A stretch of 64,000 nucleotides of DNA from an uncultured Alphaproteobacteria bacterium. Its GTDB lineage: Bacteria > Pseudomonadota > Alphaproteobacteria > RF32 > CAG-239. The notes under the pieces were generated by a model. That model was not told the origin of the DNA. It was given only the letters and a program-made list of their open reading frames with translations, and searched no databases. Location of the stretch: the NCBI GenBank assembly GCA_934271715.1, contig CAKQRZ010000009.1, forward strand, positions 9,613 to 73,612, written 5' to 3'. Below, one piece after another: positions 8,295-64,000 of this stretch (position 1 is its first letter; each line of letters begins with the position of its first letter). Both the position numbers and the translations under genes were made by a program.

Positions 8295-8948
8295 CTAAAA
8301 TCTTATGCCGATATTGCATTCTCCGTCTAAACCATCGCAAAATTTGCACATCGCCTGAAAATCTGAAAGTGTGGACGAGGCTATACATTTTCGGTCTTTC
8401 GTACCGCAATATTTAGCGCCGTAACGGGTTGTTCCAGACCAATCATTTGCTGAATTAGCAACAGTAACGCGGAATAGCTCCGAACTTAGCGGCAAGGCGA
8501 GGTTATTCAATAATTCCGTGCATAGCTTAACCGAAAAGTTTACGCTTACCGACGCACCGCTTTCATTTTTAGTGGTTCCGCCTAAATACATATCAAAAGA
8601 TAGGAGTTCGCCGTTCAAAAGATAGGCAGCTACGTTATTTCCCTGAGAATCCTTATACCATATCTTGCTTTGTTTAACCCAGCTCTCTGGCACCATATTC
8701 ATTGCCGCCATAGTATCTGCGAGAAATACCTGATTTTGCGGATTAGAACGTAACAGATTGTCTTTATGCTCCAGCAGCTGAAAAATAACATTGCTGTATT
8801 CTTCCACCAATTTATTAACTTTAAACTTCTCCATAGCCTTGGAGTAACCGGCGATACCACCGACACTTAACACACCGATAATCGCCAGCACTCCCAGCAT
8901 TTCTATCATGCTGCGGCCAAAGGAATTTGCGCCTCTAGCACCCGTCAT
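8295..8948 (-). CDS. Type IV pilin-like protein with Cys-rich C-terminus (paralogue 1)
   Basis: MTGARGANSFG|RSMIEMLGVLAIIGVLSVGGIAGYSKAMEKFK prepilin-type N-terminus; C-terminal CKFCDGLDGECNIGIRF. The ORF stays open in frame upstream to 9395 through the GC-rich modules. Confidence 0.75.
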   Translation of the reverse strand: MTGARGANSFGRSMIEMLGVLAIIGVLSVGGIAGYSKAMEKFKVNKLVEEYSNVIFQLLEHKDNLLRSNPQNQVFLADTMAAMNMVPESWVKQSKIWYKDSQGNNVAAYLLNGELLSFDMYLGGTTKNESGASVSVNFSVKLCTELLNNLALPLSSELFRVTVANSANDWSGTTRYGAKYCGTKDRKCIASSTLSDFQAMCKFCDGLDGECNIGIRF

Positions 8949-9440
8949 ACTAGGCCCTGTGCCTAGTATCTTGTGGCACCAAGGGCGTGGCAATCCAGAA
9001 CCCTCGCCCCGTGAGGGAGAGGGGGACGCCTTGGCGTCGGGTGAGTGGTACTTAAAGAACGAGCAAAAGGCACTAGACAAGCGTTCCCGGCACCAGCCTG
9101 AAACGTCATACTTGTTGCCACACCCCACAGGCTGTGGCAGACGAGTATCCATGACTTTGTTGCTGTAAGCAACGCTTTTTTGTTTACTTGCCACCAGAGA
9201 GAACCCGCGTCCCCGGCACCAGTCATTCTTGGGTTTATCCCAAGAATCTTCTCTCAATAGGCACTTATTTAATAAGGCTAATTTATTGACTAGGTTAGAT
9301 ACTTGTTGCCAGAAGATTCTAGGCACAGGGCCTAGAATGACTGGTGCTAGGGACGCTAGCTTAGTGTTTGTTGTGGTGTTTGTGTTACCCCTCACCCGGA
9401 GCGCTGCTCCGACCTCTCCCTCAAGGGGCGAGGCTGTCAG
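8949..9440. repeat. GC-rich palindromic leader modules (modules C1, D, C2), with an inverted second C1+D copy at 9297-9440
   Basis: ctaggccctgtgcctag hairpin, gacgccttggcgtc palindrome, ccctcgccccgtgagggagaggg hairpin, and the block encoding MDTRLPQPVGCGNKYDVSG. 8935-8990 and 9297-9356 are about 85% identical in inverted orientation. Confidence 0.7.
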
Positions 9441-9490
9441 TTTGCTTCTGTGCGTGTTATTTCTGAATATATCATTTTTTCTGCCAAACC

Positions 9491-9660
9491 CTGCAAAAAC
9501 GTGCTTGACGGCAGAAAAAGCGTCTTTAATCAGATGTTCAGGATTTGCAGAGAGAGAGAGAGAGACCTTTGCTTAGCTTATTTTTCATCTTTCTTTCCTC
9601 ATTTTTAAGTTAATTTACATTTTTATTCTATGCCAGCCATATTCCCTATGTCAACCGGAA
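9491..9660 (-). promoter_or_regulatory. Class A pilin leader: sigma70-like promoter, RBS and uORF with a (CT)n tract
   Basis: Minus-sense TTGACA-N17-CATAGAAT, then gaggaaagaaagATG; uORF MKNKLSKGLSLSLCKS* contains the 17-nt tc run (plus 9549-9565). This is followed by a ctgcaaa/tttgcag inverted repeat. Confidence 0.6.
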
Positions 9661-9676
9661 AATGAATTAGCATATT

Positions 9677-10336
9677 TTAAAAATCTATAGTAACAGAACA
9701 CACTTCTTTTTTTGAACAAAGTTCACAGTTGTCATGTATTTCGCTGATACTAATGTTATTTAAACACTTTCGTCCTGCAGAACAATTTTTATCGCCATAA
9801 AAAATTGATGAATTTCCAGCAGATCTAAAAAAAAGTAATAGTTCTAAGGAAGAATGTAAGGGCTTAACCACATTACTGACAAGTTCGGTACAAAATTTAG
9901 TGGAAAAATTTTCGGTTATCCATGAACTTTCATCAGGAAATTGTGAACCACCTAAGACAAAATCAAAACGAAGATTTCCGTTTCTTGAATAAATAGCGAT
10001 AATATTGCTATATGGGTCTTCAAATAAATTTTCTTGTGTAGAATCTAAATTATTTGTTTTCATATTCCAAGTTGGCGGAACTAAATTTAAAGCGTTTGCT
10101 AGTTTTATAAGTGGAGTAGTTTTTCCGTCCACATATTTAGTGGAATATTTAAATTCATCTAGGTGTTCCAACATTCCATAAATTAAGTAGCTATATTCTT
10201 CAATCGCCTTATCAAGCTTAAATTTCTCCATAGCTTTGGAATATCCGGCTATTCCGGCAACGCTCAGTACGCCGATAATCGCCAGCACGCCGAGCATTTC
10301 AATCATGCTTCTCCCTTTTTCTAAATTCTTATACAT
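9677..10336 (-). CDS. Type IV pilin-like protein with Cys-rich C-terminus (paralogue 2)
   Basis: MYKNLEKG|RSMIEMLGVLAIIGVLSVAGIAGYSKAMEKFK; C-terminal CELCSKKEVCSVTIDF. GGAG RBS sits before MYKN. Confidence 0.8.
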   Translation of the reverse strand: MYKNLEKGRSMIEMLGVLAIIGVLSVAGIAGYSKAMEKFKLDKAIEEYSYLIYGMLEHLDEFKYSTKYVDGKTTPLIKLANALNLVPPTWNMKTNNLDSTQENLFEDPYSNIIAIYSRNGNLRFDFVLGGSQFPDESSWITENFSTKFCTELVSNVVKPLHSSLELLLFFRSAGNSSIFYGDKNCSAGRKCLNNISISEIHDNCELCSKKEVCSVTIDF

Positions 10337-10366
10337 ATTTCTAACTCCGTTTAATTTGTTGTACAT

Positions 10367-21671: not shown

Positions 21672-21718
21672 GAAAATTCATGTACTTCTGTGTATGCTAA
21701 AATTTTCTCTCTTAGTAT
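21672..21718. terminator. Hairpin terminator (agagagaaaatt...aattttctctct), copy 1
   Basis: 11-bp inverted repeat plus T-run; the same stem recurs at 22966-22998, flanking the pilin cassette. Confidence 0.5.
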
Positions 21719-22374
21719 CAAAATTCTAAAACTATGGCGCAGATTTTTTCTTCATCAATACAATAGTTGCAAATATCATTGATATCAGAAAGCGTAATTG
21801 AGCTTAAACATTTTGCGTTTGGATTATCCTTGCATGTGCTGTCTCCATAATATGCAGCACCGGATTTATATGTAAAAAAGATATGGTGTACGGCAGAATG
21901 CAGAGGCTGAACCAAATCAGTCATTAAACTTTGACAGAGTTTACCCGAAAAATTAGTATTGTGAGCAATATTGCCGTCTTCATCCAAAGCGCCGCCCAGA
22001 TACATGTCTATAACCAGCCGGTTGTTGCGTGAAAATAATTGAATAATATTGCCGTAAGGGTCATACATTCGGCGGAAGTTTATTTTTTTATAGCTATCCG
22101 GAACCAGATTTAAGCCAAAAGCAAAATCAATCAGTCCGGCAGATTCTATAAGGTTGGTATTTTCGCTGTTTAGTTTTTGTATATAGTCTAAGTTTTCCAA
22201 CAGTCCATAAATTAACATACTGTATTCATCCATAGCCTTATTGAGCTTAAATTTTTCCATAGCTTTGCTATATCCGGCAATGCCGCCGACACTTAAAACT
22301 CCTATAATCGCCAAAACGCCGAGCATTTCAATCATACTGCGGCCAAGCGGGTTTGTGCCTCTGCCACCAGTCAT
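21718..22374 (-). CDS. Type IV pilin-like protein with Cys-rich C-terminus (paralogue 3)
   Basis: MTGGRGTNPLG|RSMIEMLGVLAIIGVLSVGGIAGYSKAMEKFK; C-terminal CNYCIDEEKICAIVLEF. The ORF is open upstream to 22617 through modules C1, D and C2. Confidence 0.75.
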   Translation of the reverse strand: MTGGRGTNPLGRSMIEMLGVLAIIGVLSVGGIAGYSKAMEKFKLNKAMDEYSMLIYGLLENLDYIQKLNSENTNLIESAGLIDFAFGLNLVPDSYKKINFRRMYDPYGNIIQLFSRNNRLVIDMYLGGALDEDGNIAHNTNFSGKLCQSLMTDLVQPLHSAVHHIFFTYKSGAAYYGDSTCKDNPNAKCLSSITLSDINDICNYCIDEEKICAIVLEF

Positions 22375-22720
22375 CCTAGGCCGTGACGCACAGTCTGTAC
22401 CTAGGATCTTGTCGCACCAAGGGCGTGGCAATCCCTCTCCCCCTGCGGGAGAGAGTGACGCCTTGGCGTCGGGTGAGGGGTATTTAAAGGACTCGCAACA
22501 AGAATTAAATAGGCGCCTAAAGCCCAAACCCGAAACGTCATACTTGTCGCCACACCCTGCAGGCTGTGGCAGACGAGTATCCATGATTTTGTTGCCAACG
22601 GCAACGCATATTGACATTGCTTTAGCAATGGCGTTATGGATTCTCCGCCATGGTACTTCCGGCAGGGAGTACCGGCGAAGAATGACGCTGAGAGTGGAGG
22701 CGGAAAAGCGCGTGAACGTG
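22375..22720. repeat. GC-rich palindromic leader modules (C1, D, C2 and an extended C2)
   Basis: cctagg...cctagg hairpin, gacgccttggcgtc, ctctcccgcagggggagag, and the block encoding MDTRLPQPAGCGDKYDVSG. 22560-22700 is the reverse complement of 62470-62640. Confidence 0.7.
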
Positions 22721-22781
22721 CCGCCTGCTAGTTTAGTTCTTAATGCGTTATTTCTGAAAGTGTCATCTTTTCTGCCAAACC

Positions 22782-22960
22782 CTGCAAAAACGTGCTGAGC
22801 GGCAGAAAATATGCCTTTAATCAGATGTTTAGGATTTGCAGAGAGAGAGAGAGAGACCTTTGAATAGCTTATTTTTCATCTTTCTTTCCTCTTATTTTAG
22901 TTAATTACTATACTCATTCTATACCAGCCGCACTCCATAAGTCAACCGTAAAATCAAAAT
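22782..22960 (-). promoter_or_regulatory. Class A pilin leader (promoter, RBS, uORF with a 17-nt tc tract)
   Basis: Minus-sense TTGACT-N17-TATAGAAT; uORF MKNKLFKGLSLSLCKS*; run at 22840-22856. Confidence 0.6.
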
Positions 22961-29678: not shown

Positions 29679-29984
29679 ATGGTTTTAGGCGTGACAGACA
29701 AAGAACAGCGGATTATAGAAGATATTTTAGACGCTTATGCGGATAGTTATGCCTTTTATTACTATGGTTCGCGCGTAAAAGGCAATTTTGAAAAGACCTC
29801 TGATTTAGATGTTTTAATCAAAGGTCAAAAAGAAATGCCGCTGTTTATTTTAAGCGAGCTGAAAGAAAAATTTGACGCCAGCTATTTGCCGTACATTGTC
29901 AATTTTTCCGATTATCACAATATCACGCCTGATTTTTATGAGCATATCAAGCAAGATTTGGTTAATTACAAAGCAAATGCTTAA
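29679..29984 (+). CDS. Minimal nucleotidyltransferase (HI0073/MntA-like antitoxin)
   Basis: YYYGSRVKGNFEKTSDLDVLI matches the GS...DxD NTase motif; 101 aa. Confidence 0.65.
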   Translation: MVLGVTDKEQRIIEDILDAYADSYAFYYYGSRVKGNFEKTSDLDVLIKGQKEMPLFILSELKEKFDASYLPYIVNFSDYHNITPDFYEHIKQDLVNYKANA

Positions 29985-30787
29985 AACTCCAGAGTTACGG
30001 TACAGCTTTGCACGCCGCCTTCACAGCCGTTGCATTCATCGTTAATTTCGTCCAGAGTAATGTCGTTAAGGCATTTTTTGTCGCCGCCGCAATAGGCATC
30101 GCCGTAAAATTGCGTATTGTTGGCGCCGGATTTATAAATCCATGCATATTGCACGGCACTATGCAGCGGCTGAGCTAAATCGCTCATCAGGGCGCGGCAT
30201 AGCTTAACCGGAAAATAAGGTGTGAATCCGGTGCCATCATCATTATTTGTAAAACCGCCAATATGAAAATCCATAACCAAATTGCCGCCGCGGGAAAAAA
30301 CACTAACCATGTTGCCGTCAGAATCAATAAGCTGATTTATGGCGTTGTTGCTATGCCAATCGGCAGGAACTAAATTTGCCGCAAGCACATAGTCGCGCAG
30401 CCCGCATTCTTGCCAATTTGCTACCCAATCATTACATTTCAGCTTCTTAAATTCGTTTACATTTCCAATCATTCCCGCCACTAAATAGCTGTATTGTTCT
30501 ATAGTTTTGTTGATTTTAAACTTTTCCATCGCCTTTGAATAACCGGCAATCCCGCCAACCGATAATACTCCAATTATTGCCAGAACGCCTAGCATTTCAA
30601 TCATACTGCGGCCAAGCGGGTTTGTGCCTCTGCCACCAGTCATCCTAGGCCGTGACGCACAGTCTGTACCTAGGATCTTGTGGCACCAAGGGCGTGGCAA
30701 TCCAAAACCCTCGCCCCGTGAGGGAGAGGGTGCAGACTTGTCTGCGGGTGAGGGGTACTTAAAGACATTTTCAAATAATTTATACAT
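29981..30787 (-). CDS. Type IV pilin-like protein with Cys-rich C-terminus (paralogue 4); leader extended in frame by palindromic modules
   Basis: GGAGG RBS then MYKLFENVFKYPSPADKSAPSPSRGEGFGLPRPWCHKILGTDCASRPRMTGGRGTNPLG|RSMIEMLGVLAIIGVLSVGGIAGYSKAMEKFK; C-terminal CNGCEGGVQSCTVTLEF. Modules D and C1 (gcagacaagtctgc palindrome, cctagg hairpin) insert 150 nt in frame relative to paralogue 2. Confidence 0.7.
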   Translation of the reverse strand: MYKLFENVFKYPSPADKSAPSPSRGEGFGLPRPWCHKILGTDCASRPRMTGGRGTNPLGRSMIEMLGVLAIIGVLSVGGIAGYSKAMEKFKINKTIEQYSYLVAGMIGNVNEFKKLKCNDWVANWQECGLRDYVLAANLVPADWHSNNAINQLIDSDGNMVSVFSRGGNLVMDFHIGGFTNNDDGTGFTPYFPVKLCRALMSDLAQPLHSAVQYAWIYKSGANNTQFYGDAYCGGDKKCLNDITLDEINDECNGCEGGVQSCTVTLEF

Positions 30788-31176: not shown

Positions 31177-32208
31177 TTATGAATTGGTATTATTTTCTTT
31201 CTGCAGCAATTTTTTTACCTCTTTATCAAAATCAGATTCTATATGCTGCGTTTTATTAAATATGTCATATTCCTTTTCGGCTTTGTCTTTGGCCTGTTTC
31301 TGCGAAATTTTTCCTTTATTTCCATCCGGCAGAATATCATACCGGCGAAATGCCAAAAACTCATTTACACTTTTGGCGAATTCCTGCATTGTAAAAGTGT
31401 TTTCACGTTCAATTAAATCTTCAATATAATCAAAATAGCCGGAAACAGTCCGTTCTAAACGTTTTATTTCTTTTTCTGACAGATAATTTTTAGCAACGGA
31501 TACGTCAGACTTTAATATTCTTCCGTCTGGAGAATTTTTCCAAGCCGTCAACCCCATATTATCTTTGGTGTGGTCGGCCTTGGTATAAATAATTTCTGCG
31601 GCGGTTTGACCGGTAATTGCGTAATGAAACTTATTTTGCACAGTAGCATAAAAATCTTGAGTTACCGGAGAGTACTTATCATAATCAATAGAGCATTCTG
31701 CAAAAATGTCTGTAATTTGCTGATAGATACGGCGTTCCGAGGCTCTGATTGAGCGAACCCGCTCCAGCAATTCGCGGAAATAATCTTGACCGAAAGCGGT
31801 TTTGCCTTGTTTCAATCTTTCATCATCCAATACAAAACCTTTTTGGATATATTCTTTTAAGATTTTTGTCGCCCAAATTCTGAAATGTGTAGCTTGGATG
31901 GAATTTACCCGATATCCGACAGAAATAATGGCATCAAGGTTGTAAAAATTAGTTTCTGAAGTTTGTGTTTTATTTGCAATAGCGCCGTGCTGAGTGGTTG
32001 TTTCCATTTTGGAAATAACCACTTGTTCATCTAATTCTTTTTCCTCAAATATATTTTTCAAATGCTTGCTGATAGCCGGTGTTTGCACACCAAACAATTC
32101 GGCCATTGCTTTTTGTGTCAGCCAAATTGTTTCATCTTTTATGACTGCATTTACTTTTATATCTTTATCAGGTGCGGAATAAACTAAAAAATTAAACTCT
32201 TTATTCAT
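31177..32208 (-). CDS. Virulence protein RhuM family (DNA-binding)
   Basis: FYNLDAIISVGYRVNSIQATHFRIWATKILKEY is the RhuM-family signature. Confidence 0.7.
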   Translation of the reverse strand: MNKEFNFLVYSAPDKDIKVNAVIKDETIWLTQKAMAELFGVQTPAISKHLKNIFEEKELDEQVVISKMETTTQHGAIANKTQTSETNFYNLDAIISVGYRVNSIQATHFRIWATKILKEYIQKGFVLDDERLKQGKTAFGQDYFRELLERVRSIRASERRIYQQITDIFAECSIDYDKYSPVTQDFYATVQNKFHYAITGQTAAEIIYTKADHTKDNMGLTAWKNSPDGRILKSDVSVAKNYLSEKEIKRLERTVSGYFDYIEDLIERENTFTMQEFAKSVNEFLAFRRYDILPDGNKGKISQKQAKDKAEKEYDIFNKTQHIESDFDKEVKKLLQKENNTNS

Positions 32209-32492: not shown

Positions 32493-33326
32493 TTGGGGAT
32501 AGATTACGGAGTAAGCGATTTGAGTATAGAGAGGTGGTTTCAGCAAGGATATCGCCGCAAGAACAAGGAATACGGCGGAGCAAAATGTCCAATGGTGTTA
32601 GGGATAGATGAACATTATTTCAGCAAGAAAGGCGGCTATGCAACCACATTAGTAAATTTGAGCAAGCATAAGGTATTTGATGTTGTTTTAGGTCGTTCAG
32701 AACAAGATTTGGTAGGATATTTGAACCGTCTCAAAGGCAAGGATAAAGTACGAGTAGTTGTAATGGATTTAAGCTCTAATTACCGGAGTATTGTCAAAAA
32801 ATACTTTCCTAATGCAATGATAGTAAGTGACCGTTTCCACGTCATAAAATTGATATTAGAGAGTTTTATAAAAACGGCCTACAGTATAGATACAAACTTA
32901 AAGAAACAGTTTGGATTAGGACGATTATTGAGAAAAAATAAAGCCACTTTGAAAAACTGGCAAAAGTTAAAGATAGAAGCTTATCTTGAAACTCAATCTC
33001 AAATTAAGATACTGTATGAAATAACGCAGGATTTAATGAGCTTAATGAATGAAAAGATGTGCAAATATAAGGATTGTAAACAAAGATTGATACCGAAATT
33101 GCTTAAATACATAGAATTATTAAAGGATTGCGGCTTTGTATTATTTAGAAAATTAGGAAGAACGATAGAGAATTGGCAAGAAGAAATTGGAAGAATGTTC
33201 AGATTTACCAGAAGTAATGGGATAACAGAGGGATTTCATAGAAAGATGAAACTAATCCAACGACGAGCGTATGGTTTTAGAAATTTTGAAAATTATCGAT
33301 TGCGAATTATAGTTTTATGTGCTTAA
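32493..33326 (+). mobile_element. ISL3-family transposase, N-terminally truncated fragment
   Basis: ...VLGIDEHYF...SDRFHVIK...SNGITEGFHRKMKLIQRRAYGFRNFENYRLRIIVLC is the ISL3 catalytic C-terminus. The N-terminal Zn-finger/HTH is absent and no terminal inverted repeats were found. Confidence 0.65.
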
Positions 33327-42746: not shown

Positions 42747-43397
42747 ATGAAACAAAATCAATTAGGCAGAAGTATGATAGAAATGCTCGGCGTACTGGCA
42801 ATAATTGCAGTTTTAAGCGTCGGCGGGATTGCCGGATATTCTAAAGCCATGCTGATGTGGCATTCAAATAAGCAGAAAGACTTACTGGCAACGCTTATCA
42901 ATAATGCTATCACGCTTAAACCCAATTTATCTACTTTGAGGGAAAATCGTTCGCAGACTATTACTGATGTTTTTATTGCGATGGGCGGTGTACCGGAGGG
43001 TTTTACCTATCAAAACAATGTGATATATGATGCCGATAATAATTCAATCAGCATAACTTACGGGATTGAGTATGATAGGCAAAGAGATGATTCTTTGGTA
43101 AAAGTATTTAAATATGCTATCAGAATCAGCGCTATTGAGGGAACAGGCAAGCTTTCCATATCTATGAAAGAGTATTGCAAAAATTTGATTATGGCTGCTC
43201 AGTCAGCGCCGAATGAAGTTCTGTCTGTAGATTTTTCCAGCATAGATTCTGATTCTTGGTCAGGCACCAGCGGAGCTTTGATTTTTAACCGCAGCACCCG
43301 AGGGCAGACCTCTCCGGCGCAGATAAATGAACGCTGCAATATAGCCATTAAAGAAAACGGGCGAGGTTACTTTAGAATTTTGCTGAATCCAAATTAA
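42747..43397 (+). CDS. Type IV pilin-like protein (divergent paralogue 5, no Cys-rich C-terminus)
   Basis: MKQNQLG|RSMIEMLGVLAIIAVLSVGGIAGYSKAM. Preceded by a partial class B leader box (ggataggcgatagtctgtctgggg) and a terminator hairpin cagctgtctcgccgacagcttttttg. Confidence 0.75.
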   Translation: MKQNQLGRSMIEMLGVLAIIAVLSVGGIAGYSKAMLMWHSNKQKDLLATLINNAITLKPNLSTLRENRSQTITDVFIAMGGVPEGFTYQNNVIYDADNNSISITYGIEYDRQRDDSLVKVFKYAIRISAIEGTGKLSISMKEYCKNLIMAAQSAPNEVLSVDFSSIDSDSWSGTSGALIFNRSTRGQTSPAQINERCNIAIKENGRGYFRILLNPN

Positions 43398-47473: not shown

Positions 47474-48100
47474 ATGTATAAAAATTTTGAAAAAGGCCGT
47501 TCCATGATAGAAATGCTGGGCGTGCTGGCGATTATTGGAGTGCTGAGTGTCGGCGGAATTGCAGGTTACTCCAAGGCTATGGAGATGTGGAAGCTGAACA
47601 AGGCAAATGAAGAATACAGCTACTTAATCCAAGGGCTGATAGAGCAAAAAGACAATATCATGGCGAATAATGTAACCGGAGGCTTGGCTGCGGTTGTTAC
47701 CGCGCTTCATCTGGTGCCGGAAACATGGAAAGATGCTGTCGGAACCGTTAACAACGCCACCTTAAGCGACCCGCAGGGAAATTTAATAAACGTATTTGTC
47801 CGAGAAAAGAGGATTGTTGTTGATTTTTATTTAGGCGGATTAGTTGGTAATGAGCTAAGAACCTCTCTCAGCTTTTCTAAAAAATTCTGTATGTCTTTAA
47901 TGCAAAACACGGTGCAGCCATTGGCTCCGGCTTTATATTATTCACGTCTCGCTCATATTTGGGATGCTCAGCATATCTATTACGGCAGCAAATTCTGTGG
48001 AGCAGGGCGGACTTGCCTGAAAGATTTGACGCTGCCGGAAATAAAAGAAATATGCGACAGCTGCACCGGCATCAGATGCGCAATCGTTTTGGAATTTTAA
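47474..48100 (+). CDS. Type IV pilin-like protein with Cys-rich C-terminus (paralogue 6)
   Basis: MYKNFEKG|RSMIEMLGVLAIIGVLSVGGIAGYSKAMEMWK; C-terminal CDSCTGIRCAIVLEF. Confidence 0.8.
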   Translation: MYKNFEKGRSMIEMLGVLAIIGVLSVGGIAGYSKAMEMWKLNKANEEYSYLIQGLIEQKDNIMANNVTGGLAAVVTALHLVPETWKDAVGTVNNATLSDPQGNLINVFVREKRIVVDFYLGGLVGNELRTSLSFSKKFCMSLMQNTVQPLAPALYYSRLAHIWDAQHIYYGSKFCGAGRTCLKDLTLPEIKEICDSCTGIRCAIVLEF

Positions 48101-54154: not shown

Positions 54155-54787
54155 TTATCTCCAGCTCATTCCAACGTAGCAAGAATCCTTTTTTACGCAG
54201 GATTTACAAATTGTACTTATTTCAGAAAGCGTCATATCAGACAGACATTTTACTTCCTTTGTGAAATCGGAATTATAGCAGGTTGTTGTATAAACCATAA
54301 AACTGTCGCTGTTGGTTATTGCGTCATTAGCAATAAATAGCGCGGCGTAATCCATATTTGCTGCTAAAGGATATACAACATCATGCGACAAAGCTAAGCA
54401 TAATTGATAAGCATATTCAGAATCTTTGTTTATTCCGTCTGGAACAATGTATATGTCGGAGGTAAAAACAGTACCGGATGGAACTGGATTAACATAGGTA
54501 TTGATTTTATTTCCCAAAGAATCGGTTATAAATTGCTTGTTTACCAATTTCCAAGTTTCCGGCACCAGCTTTGCGTCTATAATAAACTGGGATAAGAATC
54601 TGTTGTCATAGTCTCCTGAGTAGGTTTTAAATAAACTTTCCTGATATTCCATTAGACCGGTCATAAGCATAGTATATTCTTCGGTCATTTTGTTGATTTT
54701 GTATTTCTCTATTGCCTTGGAATATCCGGCGATTCCACCGACACTCAGCACACCGATAATGGCTAGAACGCCCAGCATTTCAATCAT
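54155..54787 (-). CDS. Type IV pilin-like protein (paralogue 7), with no in-frame ATG for a leader peptide
   Basis: The ORF begins directly at MIEMLGVLAIIGVLSVGGIAGYSKAIEKYK; Cys-containing C-terminus CKSCVKKDSCYVGMSWR. A 60-codon open frame with no ATG lies upstream (...TSPLEGEGYTG-RS-MIEML). Confidence 0.7.
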   Translation of the reverse strand: MIEMLGVLAIIGVLSVGGIAGYSKAIEKYKINKMTEEYTMLMTGLMEYQESLFKTYSGDYDNRFLSQFIIDAKLVPETWKLVNKQFITDSLGNKINTYVNPVPSGTVFTSDIYIVPDGINKDSEYAYQLCLALSHDVVYPLAANMDYAALFIANDAITNSDSFMVYTTTCYNSDFTKEVKCLSDMTLSEISTICKSCVKKDSCYVGMSWR

Positions 54788-54882
54788 ACTCCGCCCGGTA
54801 TAACCCTCTCCCTCAAGGGGCGAGGTTGTAGGTTTTGTTCTGTGCGTATTATTTCCGAATGTGTGATTTTTTACGCTGAACT

Positions 54883-55050
54883 CTGCAAAAACGTGCTGAG
54901 CGGCAGAAAATATGCCTTTAATCAGATGTTTAGGATTTGCAGAGAGAGAGAGAGAGACCTTTGCTTAGTTTATTTTTCATCTTTCTTTCCTCTAAAATTA
55001 TGTTGTTTACGTACCAATTCTATAACAGACGTTTAACTAAAGTCAACAGG
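54883..55050 (-). promoter_or_regulatory. Class A pilin leader (promoter, RBS, uORF with a 17-nt tc tract)
   Basis: Minus-sense TTGACT-N17-TATAGAAT, then gaggaaagaaagATG; uORF MKNKLSKGLSLSLCKS* (plus 54930-54980); tract at 54941-54957. Confidence 0.6.
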
Positions 55051-61201: not shown

Positions 61202-61870
61202 TCAATAAGTTATAACAATAGAACAAGTTCCGTTGCTGTCTCCGCAGGTATGGCAAGCTGCGTTTATTTCTGCCAGAGTTACGTTTTTTAGGCATTTTTT
61301 ATCAGCACCGCAATAATTATTTCCATACCATAACTGATTAAGAGTTTGCGCACCTCCACGCCATACATAGGAATAATCCACAAATTCGGAAAGCGGCTGT
61401 ACAAAGTTTAGAAACAACTCACGGCAGAGCTGAACTCGCTGTTCAGCTAAAGAGTAAGAATCTTTAACCTCATATTCTTCCAGCAGATAAATTTCAAAAA
61501 CTAAATCTGAACCGCCCCGCCATATCTGTATTCGGTTATTAAGCCGGTCATGAACATTGCTGGCGTTATCATATGTCCAAGAAGTTGGAATAGCGTTTAG
61601 AGACTGCATTATATCGGCATAGCCGCTGCCGTTTGGAACTTTTCTAATATCATCCAAATGCTCAATGGCTCCAAACATAAAATGGGTATATTCACTAATC
61701 AGTTGATTAACCTTCCACTTTTCCATCGCCTTAGAATATCCTGCAATTCCTCCGACTGTTAAAACGGCAATAATGGCTAGAACGCCCAGCATTTCAATCA
61801 TTGACCGACCGGCTGAAACTGCGTATAGCGGCGCATCTAAAGCAGTTTTACGCTGTCTCAAAAAATTCAT
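61202..61870 (-). CDS. Type IV pilin-like protein with Cys-rich C-terminus (paralogue 8)
   Basis: GGAGG RBS then MNFLRQRKTALDAPLYAVSAG|RSMIEMLGVLAIIAVLTVGGIAGYSKAMEKWK; C-terminal CHTCGDSNGTCSIVITY. The ORF-track start at 61978 has no RBS. Confidence 0.75.
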   Translation of the reverse strand: MNFLRQRKTALDAPLYAVSAGRSMIEMLGVLAIIAVLTVGGIAGYSKAMEKWKVNQLISEYTHFMFGAIEHLDDIRKVPNGSGYADIMQSLNAIPTSWTYDNASNVHDRLNNRIQIWRGGSDLVFEIYLLEEYEVKDSYSLAEQRVQLCRELFLNFVQPLSEFVDYSYVWRGGAQTLNQLWYGNNYCGADKKCLKNVTLAEINAACHTCGDSNGTCSIVITY

Positions 61871-62037
61871 GTACCTCCAATGTACACTAGGATTTTTTTC
61901 GCAGCTAGAAACCACTTTATCTACACCGCTCTCCGCAGTTTTGAAGAATTTTGCGGCGCATTGACGCACGGCATCCAAAGTCTTAAATGCGATGTTGGTT
62001 AGGTTAATTTCTTGTTTGCTGATTTTTTCAAAAAACT

Positions 62038-62215
62038 CTGCAAAAACACGCTGAGCGGCAAAAAATACGCCTTTAATCAGATGTTTAGGATTTGCAGAGA
62101 GAGAGAGAGACCTTTGCTTAGCTTATTTTTCATCTTTCTTTCCTCTTAAATTAAGTTGTTTACTAGATTTATTCTATACCAGCCTTACTCCATAAGTCAA
62201 CCGCAAAATCAAGGC
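62038..62215 (-). promoter_or_regulatory. Class A pilin leader with a shorter, 15-nt tc tract
   Basis: Minus-sense TTGACT-N17-TATAGAAT; uORF reads MKNKLSKGLSLSLQILNI* because the tract (plus 62096-62110) is one dinucleotide shorter than in the other three copies. Confidence 0.6.
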
Positions 62216-62231
62216 ATAGGAAAAGCCTGGA

Positions 62232-62407
62232 ATGTGTAAAAAAAACGACCGTTATTTTTACACACTCAAAACAAGCTGCTGAAATGTTGCAAAATTATGA
62301 AAAAAATAACGCAAAATTATTATGTTATTGCATTTTGCAGCAAACCGTGATACATTACTAAAAACAGCCTAAAAACTGTCCCTTTTAAACGGTCGTTTTT
62401 TTTACAC
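62232..62407. repeat. Perfect 20-bp inverted repeats (gtgtaaaaaaaacgaccgtt / aacggtcgttttttttacac) flanking 135 bp
   Basis: Located between the divergent pilin (61202-61870) and the Cys-repeat gene (62426+). A nested 9-bp inverted repeat ctgcaaaat/attttgcag lies inside. Confidence 0.6.
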
Positions 62408-62425
62408 ATAATAGGAGGAATAAGA

Positions 62426-64000
62426 TGTTGAAGAGTATGAATTTTTTAAGAGGAAAGAGCAGGGAAAGAGTAAGTGGAGGCGGCACTTCCGTTTGCAGCG
62501 TCATTCTTCGCCGGTACTCCCAGCTGGAAGTACCATGGCGGAGAATCCATAACGTCATTGCGCATGCAATGTCAGTATGCGTTGCCGTTGGCAACAAAGT
62601 CATGGGTACTCGTCTGCCACAGCCAGCAGGGTGTGGCGACAAGTATGACGTTTCTGGTTGGTGCTTGAAACGTGGGTTGAGAGCCTTTAGCACCTTTACT
62701 ATTAAAGCAATGTCAATATTAGCATTTATTTGCTTATTTGCAACCGCGGCGGAGGCGAAGATTTGCTTTTTGCCGGACGGCAGCTGCGGCACCGCTAAAA
62801 CAACCGGATTTAAGCAGAATCCCAACGGAAGCGGATGTATGTATAAATCGGAAGCCGAAGCCCGAAACGGTTTAGGCGCCTGTGAAACCACATATAAGCA
62901 AAACATGTGCTATTATCGGCGCTGCAAGACCGAAGACAATAATATATTTGCAGACGAAGCAAGCTGTAAGAAGAAAGCCGAGGATAACAATCTAATCTGC
63001 GTAAGCTGCGGAGGTTGCTATAAAGTTACGCCGAAAACCTGCCCGAGCGGGTACACGGCAGGCTTAACCACCTGTGCGGAAAAAGCCGGATATACGGCAA
63101 GTTATTCAAGCAACGGCTATGCCGGATATAGTGTCTGCGGCAAGTGCAAATATACCATAAAACCGTGTGAAAGCGGCTATACGGTAGGTTTGGCAAGCTG
63201 TCCGGAAAAACAAGGTTATACTTCAGATTATTCCCGAAACGGAGTTTCAGGCGAACAGGTTTGCGGCAAGTGCGACTATACGGCAAAGAGCTGTGCCGGA
63301 GGTTATACAGCGGGTCTGACAAGCTGCAGCGAGCGCCAAGGCTACACGGCAAGTTTAGTCAGCAACGGCTATGCCGGGGAGTTGGCTTGCGGAAAATGCT
63401 GTTATACGGCAAAAGGCTGCGCTAGCGGTTATACAGCAGGTCTGACAAGCTGCAGCGAACGGCGCGGATATAATGCAAGTTATGCCAGCAACGGATATTC
63501 CGGCGAGAAAATTTGCGGAAAATGCGACTACACGGCAAGAACTTGTCCATATGGATATTCTACAAAATATAGCAGCGTCAGAGTCTGCGGATATCCAGGA
63601 GGCTGGAACTATGCTACTAACGGATATTCTGGAGATGCTGTATGCGGAAAATGTACAGAGAAAACGTGTCCTAGCGGGTCTTGGGTGTCTAGTGGTTCTC
63701 CTGACTGCAGCAGTTATGGTAAGGATTATTGGTGGAAAAATACAGGCGCAAGTGGAAATATGGATTGCTATACATGTGAACAGAAACAATGTCCTAGCGG
63801 ATCTGGTAAATATGAAAAGTATGGAACAGCAGGATGTGGGGATAAAAGTAATCTTGGATGGACTGCAAAAATAGTTGGAAGGGCAGGAGAAATGTATTGC
63901 ACAATATGCACACCCAAAGCTTGTCCTAGTGATTATCCTATAACTAATATTTCACAATGTCCTAAAAAGGTTAATGGGTCAGGAACATTTTCTCCGTATT
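62426..64000 (+). CDS. Secreted protein with tandem Cys-rich repeats (partial, runs off the window end); its leader is translated through GC-rich module C2
   Basis: GGAGG RBS and ATG at 62426 are in frame through ...MSVCVAVGNKVMGTRLPQPAGCGDKYDVSGWCLKRGL... into MSILAFICLFATAAEA (ATG at 62710). At least six tandem repeats of about 36 aa follow: C.SGYTAGLTSCSERQGYTAS..SNGYAGE..CGKC.YTAK. Missing from the ORF track because there is no stop inside the window. Confidence 0.65.

Follow-up and report, generated by a model that had tools for sequence, protein, structure and literature searches.

The stretch of DNA analysed here, hereafter called the window, comprises 64,000 nucleotides of a contig from an uncultured Alphaproteobacteria bacterium (assembly GCA_934271715.1, contig CAKQRZ010000009.1). 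Near its right end, a pilin-like ORF on the minus strand and a Cys-rich ORF on the plus strand, the latter opened by an RBS and an ATG at 62425 and leaving the window, point away from a common intergenic region, an arrangement that the initial annotation had described correctly. The features of this region, from left to right, are as follows.

61202 to 61870, minus strand: pilin-like gene, with the prepilin-type motif G/RSMIEMLGVLAIIAVL and an open in-frame leader extending upstream to about 62125
62020 to 62231, minus strand: conserved module that forms the leader of the divergent pilin-like gene, with its own predicted promoter, an RBS and an ATG (62133-62131)
62097 to 62110, minus strand: (TC)7 tract, 23 nt downstream of the module ATG
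62232 to 62265, no strand assigned: putative left recombination site, with outer arm ATGTGTAAAAAAAACG, centre AC and inner arm CGTTATTTTTACAC
62254 to 62387, plus strand: probable invertible interior of 134 nt, with a predicted promoter pointing right in the window
62328 to 62333, plus strand: predicted -35 hexamer TTGCAT; family consensus GTTATTGCAA, in which TTATTGC is nearly invariant between copies
62348 to 62356, plus strand: predicted extended -10 element TG-A-TACATT (TGATACATT), 17 nt after the -35 hexamer; family pattern TGnTAnnnT
62374 to 62409, no strand assigned: putative right recombination site, with degenerate inner arm CTGTCCCTTTTAAACG, centre GT and outer arm CGTTTTTTTTACACAT
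62413 to 62427, plus strand: RBS AGGAGGA (62413-62419) and ATG (62425-62427), the ATG lying 17 nt past the end of the 20-mer repeat
62425 to 64000 (window edge), plus strand: Cys-repeat secreted-protein gene, ending at about 64119, outside the window

A repeat search of the window revealed two arms of 22 nt, ATGTGTAAAAAAAACGACCGTT (62232-62253) and AACGGTCGTTTTTTTTACACAT (62388-62409), which are 100% complementary and enclose 134 nt; the length of the element is about 176 bp. The perfect 20-bp inverted repeat reported in the initial annotation is therefore real and extends to 22 nt, but its left coordinates were one base off, the true positions of the 20-mers being 62234-62253 and 62388-62407. 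A nested inverted repeat had also been reported. It exists as a perfect repeat of 8 nt, TGCAAAAT (62288-62295) and ATTTTGCA (62332-62339), overlapping the -35 hexamer, but the quoted 9-mer, CTGCAAAAT, is wrong by one base and absent; judged by eye, the 8-nt repeat is apparently not common to the aligned family copies described below. When up to three mismatches were allowed, the 20-mer occurred three times in the window, as compared with 0.02 occurrences expected from 100 shuffles, none of which reached three. The third copy, a degenerate one with 3 mismatches, lies on the minus strand at 62244-62263 and reveals a local palindrome, GTGTAAAAAAAACG-AC-CGTTATTTTTACAC, one half of which is the left arm. 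The left site is nearly palindromic over about 30 bp with an asymmetric 2-bp centre, and its first 22 nt are the perfect repeat arm; as a single strand it has a predicted folding energy of -12.5 kcal/mol (z = -4.1). In the right site, the last 22 nt are the perfect repeat arm, and the inner arm, TGTCC...TTTAAACG, is conserved across the family. A search of a phage collection gave no match.

The initial annotation had suggested looking for further copies of the repeat, and an exact 20-mer scan, with one genome per species, detected at least 80 loci. Among the matches listed, nearly all were human-gut MAGs titled 'uncultured Alphaproteobacteria', and some were bins that are evidently mis-titled yet carry the same genes. 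The MAG CAKQDU01 contained at least 25-27 loci among the matches listed, and its identity to the window, 95-96% in syntenic housekeeping stretches, indicates that it is a close relative of the window organism. We extracted 49 complete copies and computed conservation over 26 non-redundant ones, oriented by their interiors and aligned. Of the 49 interiors, 44 are 133-134 nt long. Both end sites, including the inner half-sites, were conserved in the alignment, as were an A/T-rich block ending in GTTATTGCAA and the pattern TGnTAnnnT. The end site of the family is a nearly palindromic sequence of 30 bp, GTGTAAAAAAAACG-AC-CGTT(A/T)TTTTTACAC, and some subfamilies have ends that, except for the centre, are perfect palindromes of 30 bp (GTGTAAAAAAAACG-AC-CGTTTTTTTTACAC); the putative recombination sites of the family are of the GTGTAAAAAAAACGACCGTT type. 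In a minor class of copies the centres are ordered GT...AC rather than AC...GT (L006, 3348-3533; L034, 11-184; L060, 6742-6913). The better (A8) half-sites face inward in these variants, the pair is still inverted, and L060 retains the promoter motif.

The position of the copies relative to genes was also conserved. An RBS and a start codon lie 17-18 nt beyond one end in about 38 of the 49 copies, and the genes so placed are of two kinds. One encodes pilin-like proteins of about 240 aa, which start with MFKSIEFFKGKSRG...GRSMIEML and contain the prepilin-like motif GRSMIEMLGVLAII; the other encodes Cys-repeat proteins, in which a signal peptide is followed by CFLPD. On the opposite side, the copies are usually flanked by a conserved module of about 210 bp leading into a second, divergent pilin-like gene. 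The literature searched contained surveys of invertons and nothing on this repeat family or these bacteria. We concluded that the invertible promoter, a well-known type of switch, is represented here by a new multi-copy family that includes the element.

A second reading in the initial annotation was a split bidirectional terminator, in which the stem halves A8-CGACCGTT and AACGGTCG-T8 had been driven apart by an insertion that expanded the loop. On this reading, or on that of a static regulatory hairpin, the element would stay in place. The arms could indeed pair, A- and T-runs surround a G+C core, and the left end alone gives a stable hairpin. However, no terminator was found by a scan of 61800-62800, no Rfam family matched the element, and a loop of 134 nt is incompatible with an intrinsic terminator, whose loop has 3-8 nt. 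The supposed loop is, moreover, the interior that keeps its length in nearly all copies and carries the conserved promoter motif, each end is a palindromic site complete in itself and not a half-stem, and the interior is found in either orientation at one and the same locus, as presented below. We therefore dropped the split terminator, and consider any static hairpin of this kind extremely unlikely.

Besides the window locus, orthologous loci were represented by contigs that encode the closest relatives of the window Cys-repeat ORF. The contig L085, from the human-gut sample ERZ28615539, encodes a 100% identical protein, is 100% identical in DNA over 62199-64000, and represents the same strain in the same orientation as the window. 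In L087, from pig gut (protein identity 92%), the left and right flanks are 82% and 91% identical and in the same order, and the interior is inverted: its identity to the window interior is 100% after reverse-complementing one of the two and 53.7% in the direct comparison. Similarly, in L088, from the sample ERZ28616722 (protein identity 86%), the flanks are 99% and 98% identical and in the same order, and the interior alone is inverted, with an identity of 76% in the inverted versus 52% in the direct comparison. The Hadza contig L086 (protein 97%, right flank 95%) begins inside the element, and the 100 nt of interior that it contains are 95% identical to the inverted form. We also found two paralogues within one MAG, CAVGVF01 (L032 and L058), whose flanks are 93% identical and whose interiors are 99.2% identical only when one is inverted. 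The all-against-all flank comparison of the 49 copies yielded orthologous pairs in the same orientation only, and a left-junction scan of metagenomes yielded one paralogous locus, L084, again in the same orientation.

Since the flanks are unchanged and the interior is reverse-complemented, only the segment between the repeats flips, and it does so in place; the near-identity of the interiors in both orientations (100% and 99.2%) indicates that the flips were recent. The two states were seen across samples and strains, the window and L085 on the one hand and L086, L087 and L088 on the other, and in independent assemblies, so that the locus does not show the single orientation which the initial annotation had named, along with a genome lacking an invertase, as speaking against an inversion. 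The orientations having been compared between samples and strains rather than within one clonal population, ongoing reversible switching is what we infer from them.

One possible explanation for a dispersed family of this kind is that the copies are miniature transposons (MITEs) resembling the Correia elements of Neisseria, that is, non-autonomous transposons of about 176 bp with an outward promoter, whose two orientations would reflect independent insertions. Correia elements and other MITEs are likewise short (100-160 bp) and multi-copy, have terminal inverted repeats and may contain promoters acting on neighbouring genes, and our copies are uniform in size with conserved terminal inverted repeats. 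Many assemblies break at or near copies, and presence differs between closely related genomes: L096 has a copy together with an acyltransferase gene, both of which are missing from L095, L098 and L100, and L075 carries a copy at a place without one in the window. MITEs, however, transpose, leave target-site duplications and lie at varied distances from genes, whereas 38 of the 49 copies have no target-site duplication, the remaining ones having 2-4 nt, consistent with chance, and about 38 lie exactly 17-18 nt from a start codon, with both flanks conserved. No cognate transposase with matching ends was seen. Furthermore, the orthologous locus keeps its flanks and repeats to the base, the interior alone being reverse-complemented, with 100% identity in L087, and excision followed by re-insertion would not give such a flip in place. 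Transposition is therefore a very unlikely source of the two orientations.

It is also conceivable that the inversions are rare RecA-dependent events between short repeats, which became fixed as strain differences and do not constitute a programmed switch. The facts that both orientations were seen only between samples or strains, and that no dedicated recombinase was identified in the sequence searched, are in line with this explanation. For homologous recombination, on the other hand, repeats of 22-30 bp are short. Across diverged copies, nothing in the element is better conserved than its end sites, and this extends to the inner half-sites beyond the perfect repeat, which suggests recognition by a protein rather than mere homology. 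Independent flips at the window locus and within CAVGVF01, together with the recency of both, also argue against it, and we regard RecA-dependent inversion as unlikely, if somewhat less so than transposition. The preferred reading remains the one first raised in the initial annotation, an invertible promoter between divergent surface-protein genes, which is strengthened by the presence of both orientations at the locus, the promoter motif conserved in the family and the fixed distance to the start codon. Taken together, these results suggested that 62232-62409 is very probably an invertible promoter (inverton).

The promoter itself was predicted from the alignment. The family consensus consists of TTGCAA, a spacer of 17 nt that is constant in length and variable in sequence, and TGnTAnnnT, in which the conserved positions are T, G, T, A and the last T; an A/T-rich block resembling an UP element lies upstream of the -35 hexamer. 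The conserved -35 block, the fixed spacer length and the -10 pattern point to a sigma-70-type promoter with an extended -10 element. In the orientation of the window, the predicted promoter points at the Cys-repeat gene (ATG at 62425), and the locus can be read as ON for this gene, which, depending as it does on the motif, is the weakest step of the analysis. Structure predictions for the RNA upstream of the gene support this reading: the leader in the window orientation would be unstructured (-10.1 kcal/mol, z = 0.3), as compared with a strong fold over the RBS and start region in the flipped state (-28.9 kcal/mol, z = -4.8). Among the 49 assembled copies, the promoter motif faces away from the adjacent gene in 41 and toward it in 5. 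Few promoters facing genes are expected when expression at any one time is limited to a small part of a variable repertoire, and the 41 copies would fit most copies being silent, or most being ON if the real promoter ran the opposite way.

The gene that the promoter would control in the window encodes a protein, P0001, of 564 aa in its full length, with 9.2% Cys, five 42-aa CGKC repeats and a leader of 93 aa ahead of the signal peptide MSILAFICLFATAAEA; it matched no Pfam or NCBIfam family. The 93-aa in-frame extension (62425-62703) is built from 'leader cassettes' of pilin-like gene leaders, e.g. ...RRYSQLEVPWRRIHNVIAHAMSVCVAVGNKVMGTRLPQPAGCGDKYDVSG, and shows 92% DNA identity to 22520-22690.

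For the divergent gene, the AlphaFold model of the product comprises an N-terminal helix of 47 residues and an alpha/beta head (pLDDT 78.5). The prepilin motif G/RSMIEMLGVLAII is present, with the NCBIfam models TIGR02532 and PRK10506 scoring below their cut-offs; Foldseek with the model gave no significant match in the PDB, and exact-protein look-ups of the ORF in its 222-aa and 258-aa versions gave no match. The label 'pilin-like' appears reasonable on the basis of the motif and the model, rather than proven. Ten ORFs of the window share the invariant N-terminal sequence MIEMLGVLAII.VL.V.GIAGYSKA, including those at 8295-9152, 9677-10366, 21718-22617, 29981-30787, 42747-43397, 47474-48100, 54155-54787 and 61202-61870. 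These paralogues are shuffled among loci between the window and the 95-96% identical MAG.

The module ahead of the pilin-like gene has a consensus-like predicted promoter (TTGACT, 62200-62195; TAGAAT, 62176-62171; 18 nt apart). The module adjoins the inverton at many loci, and is also conserved, together with its promoter, in three copies in the window that have no inverton (about 9439-9666, 22718-22957 and 54832-55010). At n = 7, the length of the (TC)n tract in the window, the ORF opened by the module ATG stops after 18 codons. The frame past the tract stays open for 50-212 codons, through GRSMIEML to the pilin stop, in all 12 of the 12 module copies with enough downstream sequence, and it is in register with the module ATG only when n equals 6 or 9. 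The tract lengths among the paralogues are 6 (one copy), 7 and 8; the main copy in the window has 7, as compared with 8 in the pig-gut orthologue L087. The sister (GA)n/(TC)n tracts of the window, at 54942-54957, 22841-22856 and 9550-9565, have n = 8 each. This arrangement looks like the design of a contingency locus in which slipped-strand mispairing would act on translation. With an inverton on one gene and a (TC)n tract on the other, the two divergent genes would be switched by different mechanisms.

The statement in the initial annotation that no recombinase gene lies in the window was confirmed: Pfam searches of 38 window ORFs, and phmmer searches of all window ORFs with a tyrosine and a serine recombinase, returned only an ISL3 transposase fragment (32592-33326). 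This truncated transposase and a RhuM-family gene (31177-32208), both in the middle of the window, are its sole genes related to mobile elements. The 10 kb downstream of the window likewise yielded no recombinase. On related contigs we found four recombinases, two serine and two tyrosine, all of them cargo of mobile elements and neither set consistently linked to the switches. The two small serine recombinases are encoded, with a radical-SAM/SPASM protein and a DUF3800 protein, on a genomic island (L077, 1958-7280; L090, 3227-11447) bounded by an integrase of 566 aa, with RNase HII alongside. At one edge of the island in L077 stands an inverton with a 134-nt interior that shares 97% identity with that of the window; in L090 a Fic gene occupies this place. 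We rejected the 186-aa serine recombinase of L077 as a specific candidate, since it belongs to a very large Tn3/Pin-like family and its island occurs without the element in other samples.

The tyrosine recombinases, of 196 aa and 355 aa, bound a 5.3-kb integrative element (L095-L101, e.g. L095, 8662-14006) that sits within a tRNA gene between direct repeats derived from tRNA; more than 100 contigs encode the 196-aa protein. In two assemblies (L096, 14464-15821; L001, 112-1832), an inverton of the family, which would drive an Acyl_transf_3 gene, is located 412-480 nt from the gene of the 355-aa integrase. Recombinases of the L001 type are lineage-restricted, and the element that they bound usually has no inverton nearby; we set them aside, and they remain weak candidates. 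None of the four recombinases is convincing as the invertase. As to the class of enzyme, the site can be read either as 14-2-14, the grammar of serine invertases, or as 12-6-12, that of the core sites of tyrosine recombinases, the two fitting equally well.

That so many dispersed switches share one site implies a master enzyme acting in trans, and the following mechanism may be proposed. The two inverted copies of the near-palindromic site of about 30 bp would be the crossover sites of a recombinase encoded elsewhere, and recombination between them would flip the 134-nt interior with its single, outward-facing promoter of the sigma-70 type. In the state seen in the window, a transcript would start near 62363-62366 and run through the right site to the RBS and the ATG at 62425, turning the Cys-repeat gene ON. 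In the flipped state, the promoter would face the leader module of the divergent pilin-like gene, and the palindromic left site would come to lie directly before the Cys-repeat RBS, turning that gene OFF. At least about 25 elements per genome carry the same sites, and one trans-acting 'master' invertase would serve them all, so that pilin-like and Cys-repeat surface proteins would be turned ON or OFF in varying combinations. The divergent gene for a pilin-like protein has its own predicted promoter and might be gated separately at translation by slippage in the (TC)n tract. That a single master recombinase flips dozens of invertons between divergent genes, and that (TC)n frameshifts gate the partners, so that surface variation in these small-genome gut bacteria is genome-wide and has two layers, is a tentative proposal, a little more apt to fail than to stand.

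The closest known system is that of the invertible promoters at the capsular polysaccharide loci of Bacteroides fragilis, where the recombinase Mpi inverts 13 regions (PMC4747536). As in that system, there are many invertons per genome with one conserved repeat, each is a short segment with a single promoter, and the targets are surface features of a gut commensal. Mpi is an identified master recombinase that acts in trans on distant sites, whereas here such an enzyme is only implied, and may or may not be of the serine class. The two systems also differ in host, here an uncultured alphaproteobacterium, in the promoter, which is predicted to be of the sigma-70 type (TTGCAA / TGnTAnnnT) as opposed to the TAnnTTTG of Bacteroides, and in the targets, single pilin-like or Cys-repeat genes as compared with polysaccharide operons. 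Apart from the two bases in the centre, the consensus of the Mpi repeat, ARACGTWCGT, is similar to AAACGACCGT.

Other switches share single traits with the element. In E. coli, ON/OFF phase variation through FimB and FimE is produced by fimS, an invertible promoter that immediately precedes a pilus-subunit gene; it is a single locus of 314 bp with 9-bp repeats and tyrosine recombinases encoded alongside, whereas here there are dozens of loci, the sites measure about 30 bp, and no recombinase gene is adjacent. The hix and gix sites of the serine invertases Hin and Gin consist of two inverted half-sites of 12-14 bp with an asymmetric 2-bp centre. Their pattern, AAACC-NN-GGTTT, is like the AAACG-AC-CGTTT found here in that an A-tract runs into C/G beside the centre. 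Hin and Gin invert segments of 1-3 kb, with the invertase gene and an enhancer located inside or next to them. The (TC)n tract recalls the CTCTT repeats in the leader-peptide coding region of the Neisseria opa genes, in that a tandem repeat in the 5' coding part of the pilin-like gene would set the frame. Unlike in opa, the unit is a dinucleotide, (TC)6-8, it lies beside the inversion switch of the opposite gene, and slippage is a prediction.

Invertible promoters are a main route of surface variation in gut commensals, and the design of one invertase with many switches is known mainly from the Bacteroidales. The family described here suggests an analogous regulon in uncultured gut Alphaproteobacteria known solely from metagenomes, with at least about 25 switches in one MAG, and points to the pilin-like and Cys-repeat families as a host-exposed, selected surface. 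If the mechanism proposed above holds, the inverton would toggle transcription between the two sides, and the partner gene would be gated by the (TC)n tract inside a long, cassette-built leader; this adjacent tract offers a second layer that can itself be tested. To our knowledge, no two-layer system of this kind has been described outside the Bacteroidales, and none that pairs both mechanisms at one intergenic region. Since the orientation of a switch can be read from metagenomic reads, the states of the surface antigens of an uncultured organism could be tracked in its hosts.

The contigs themselves tend to break in this region. Six of them (L081, L082, L083, L085, L086 and L088) break at or near the module, the dinucleotide tract or the inverton. 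In window positions, L081 ends at 61952, L082 at 62122, L083 at 61769 and L085 at 62199; L086 ends inside the element and L088 inside the GA tract. The contigs L081-L083, which were recognized as belonging to the same strain via the neighbouring MacB gene, all end before the element. These breaks are consistent with the repeats, with heterogeneity within samples at these sites, or with both, and the switches offer an explanation for the fragmentation of genome assemblies at these loci.
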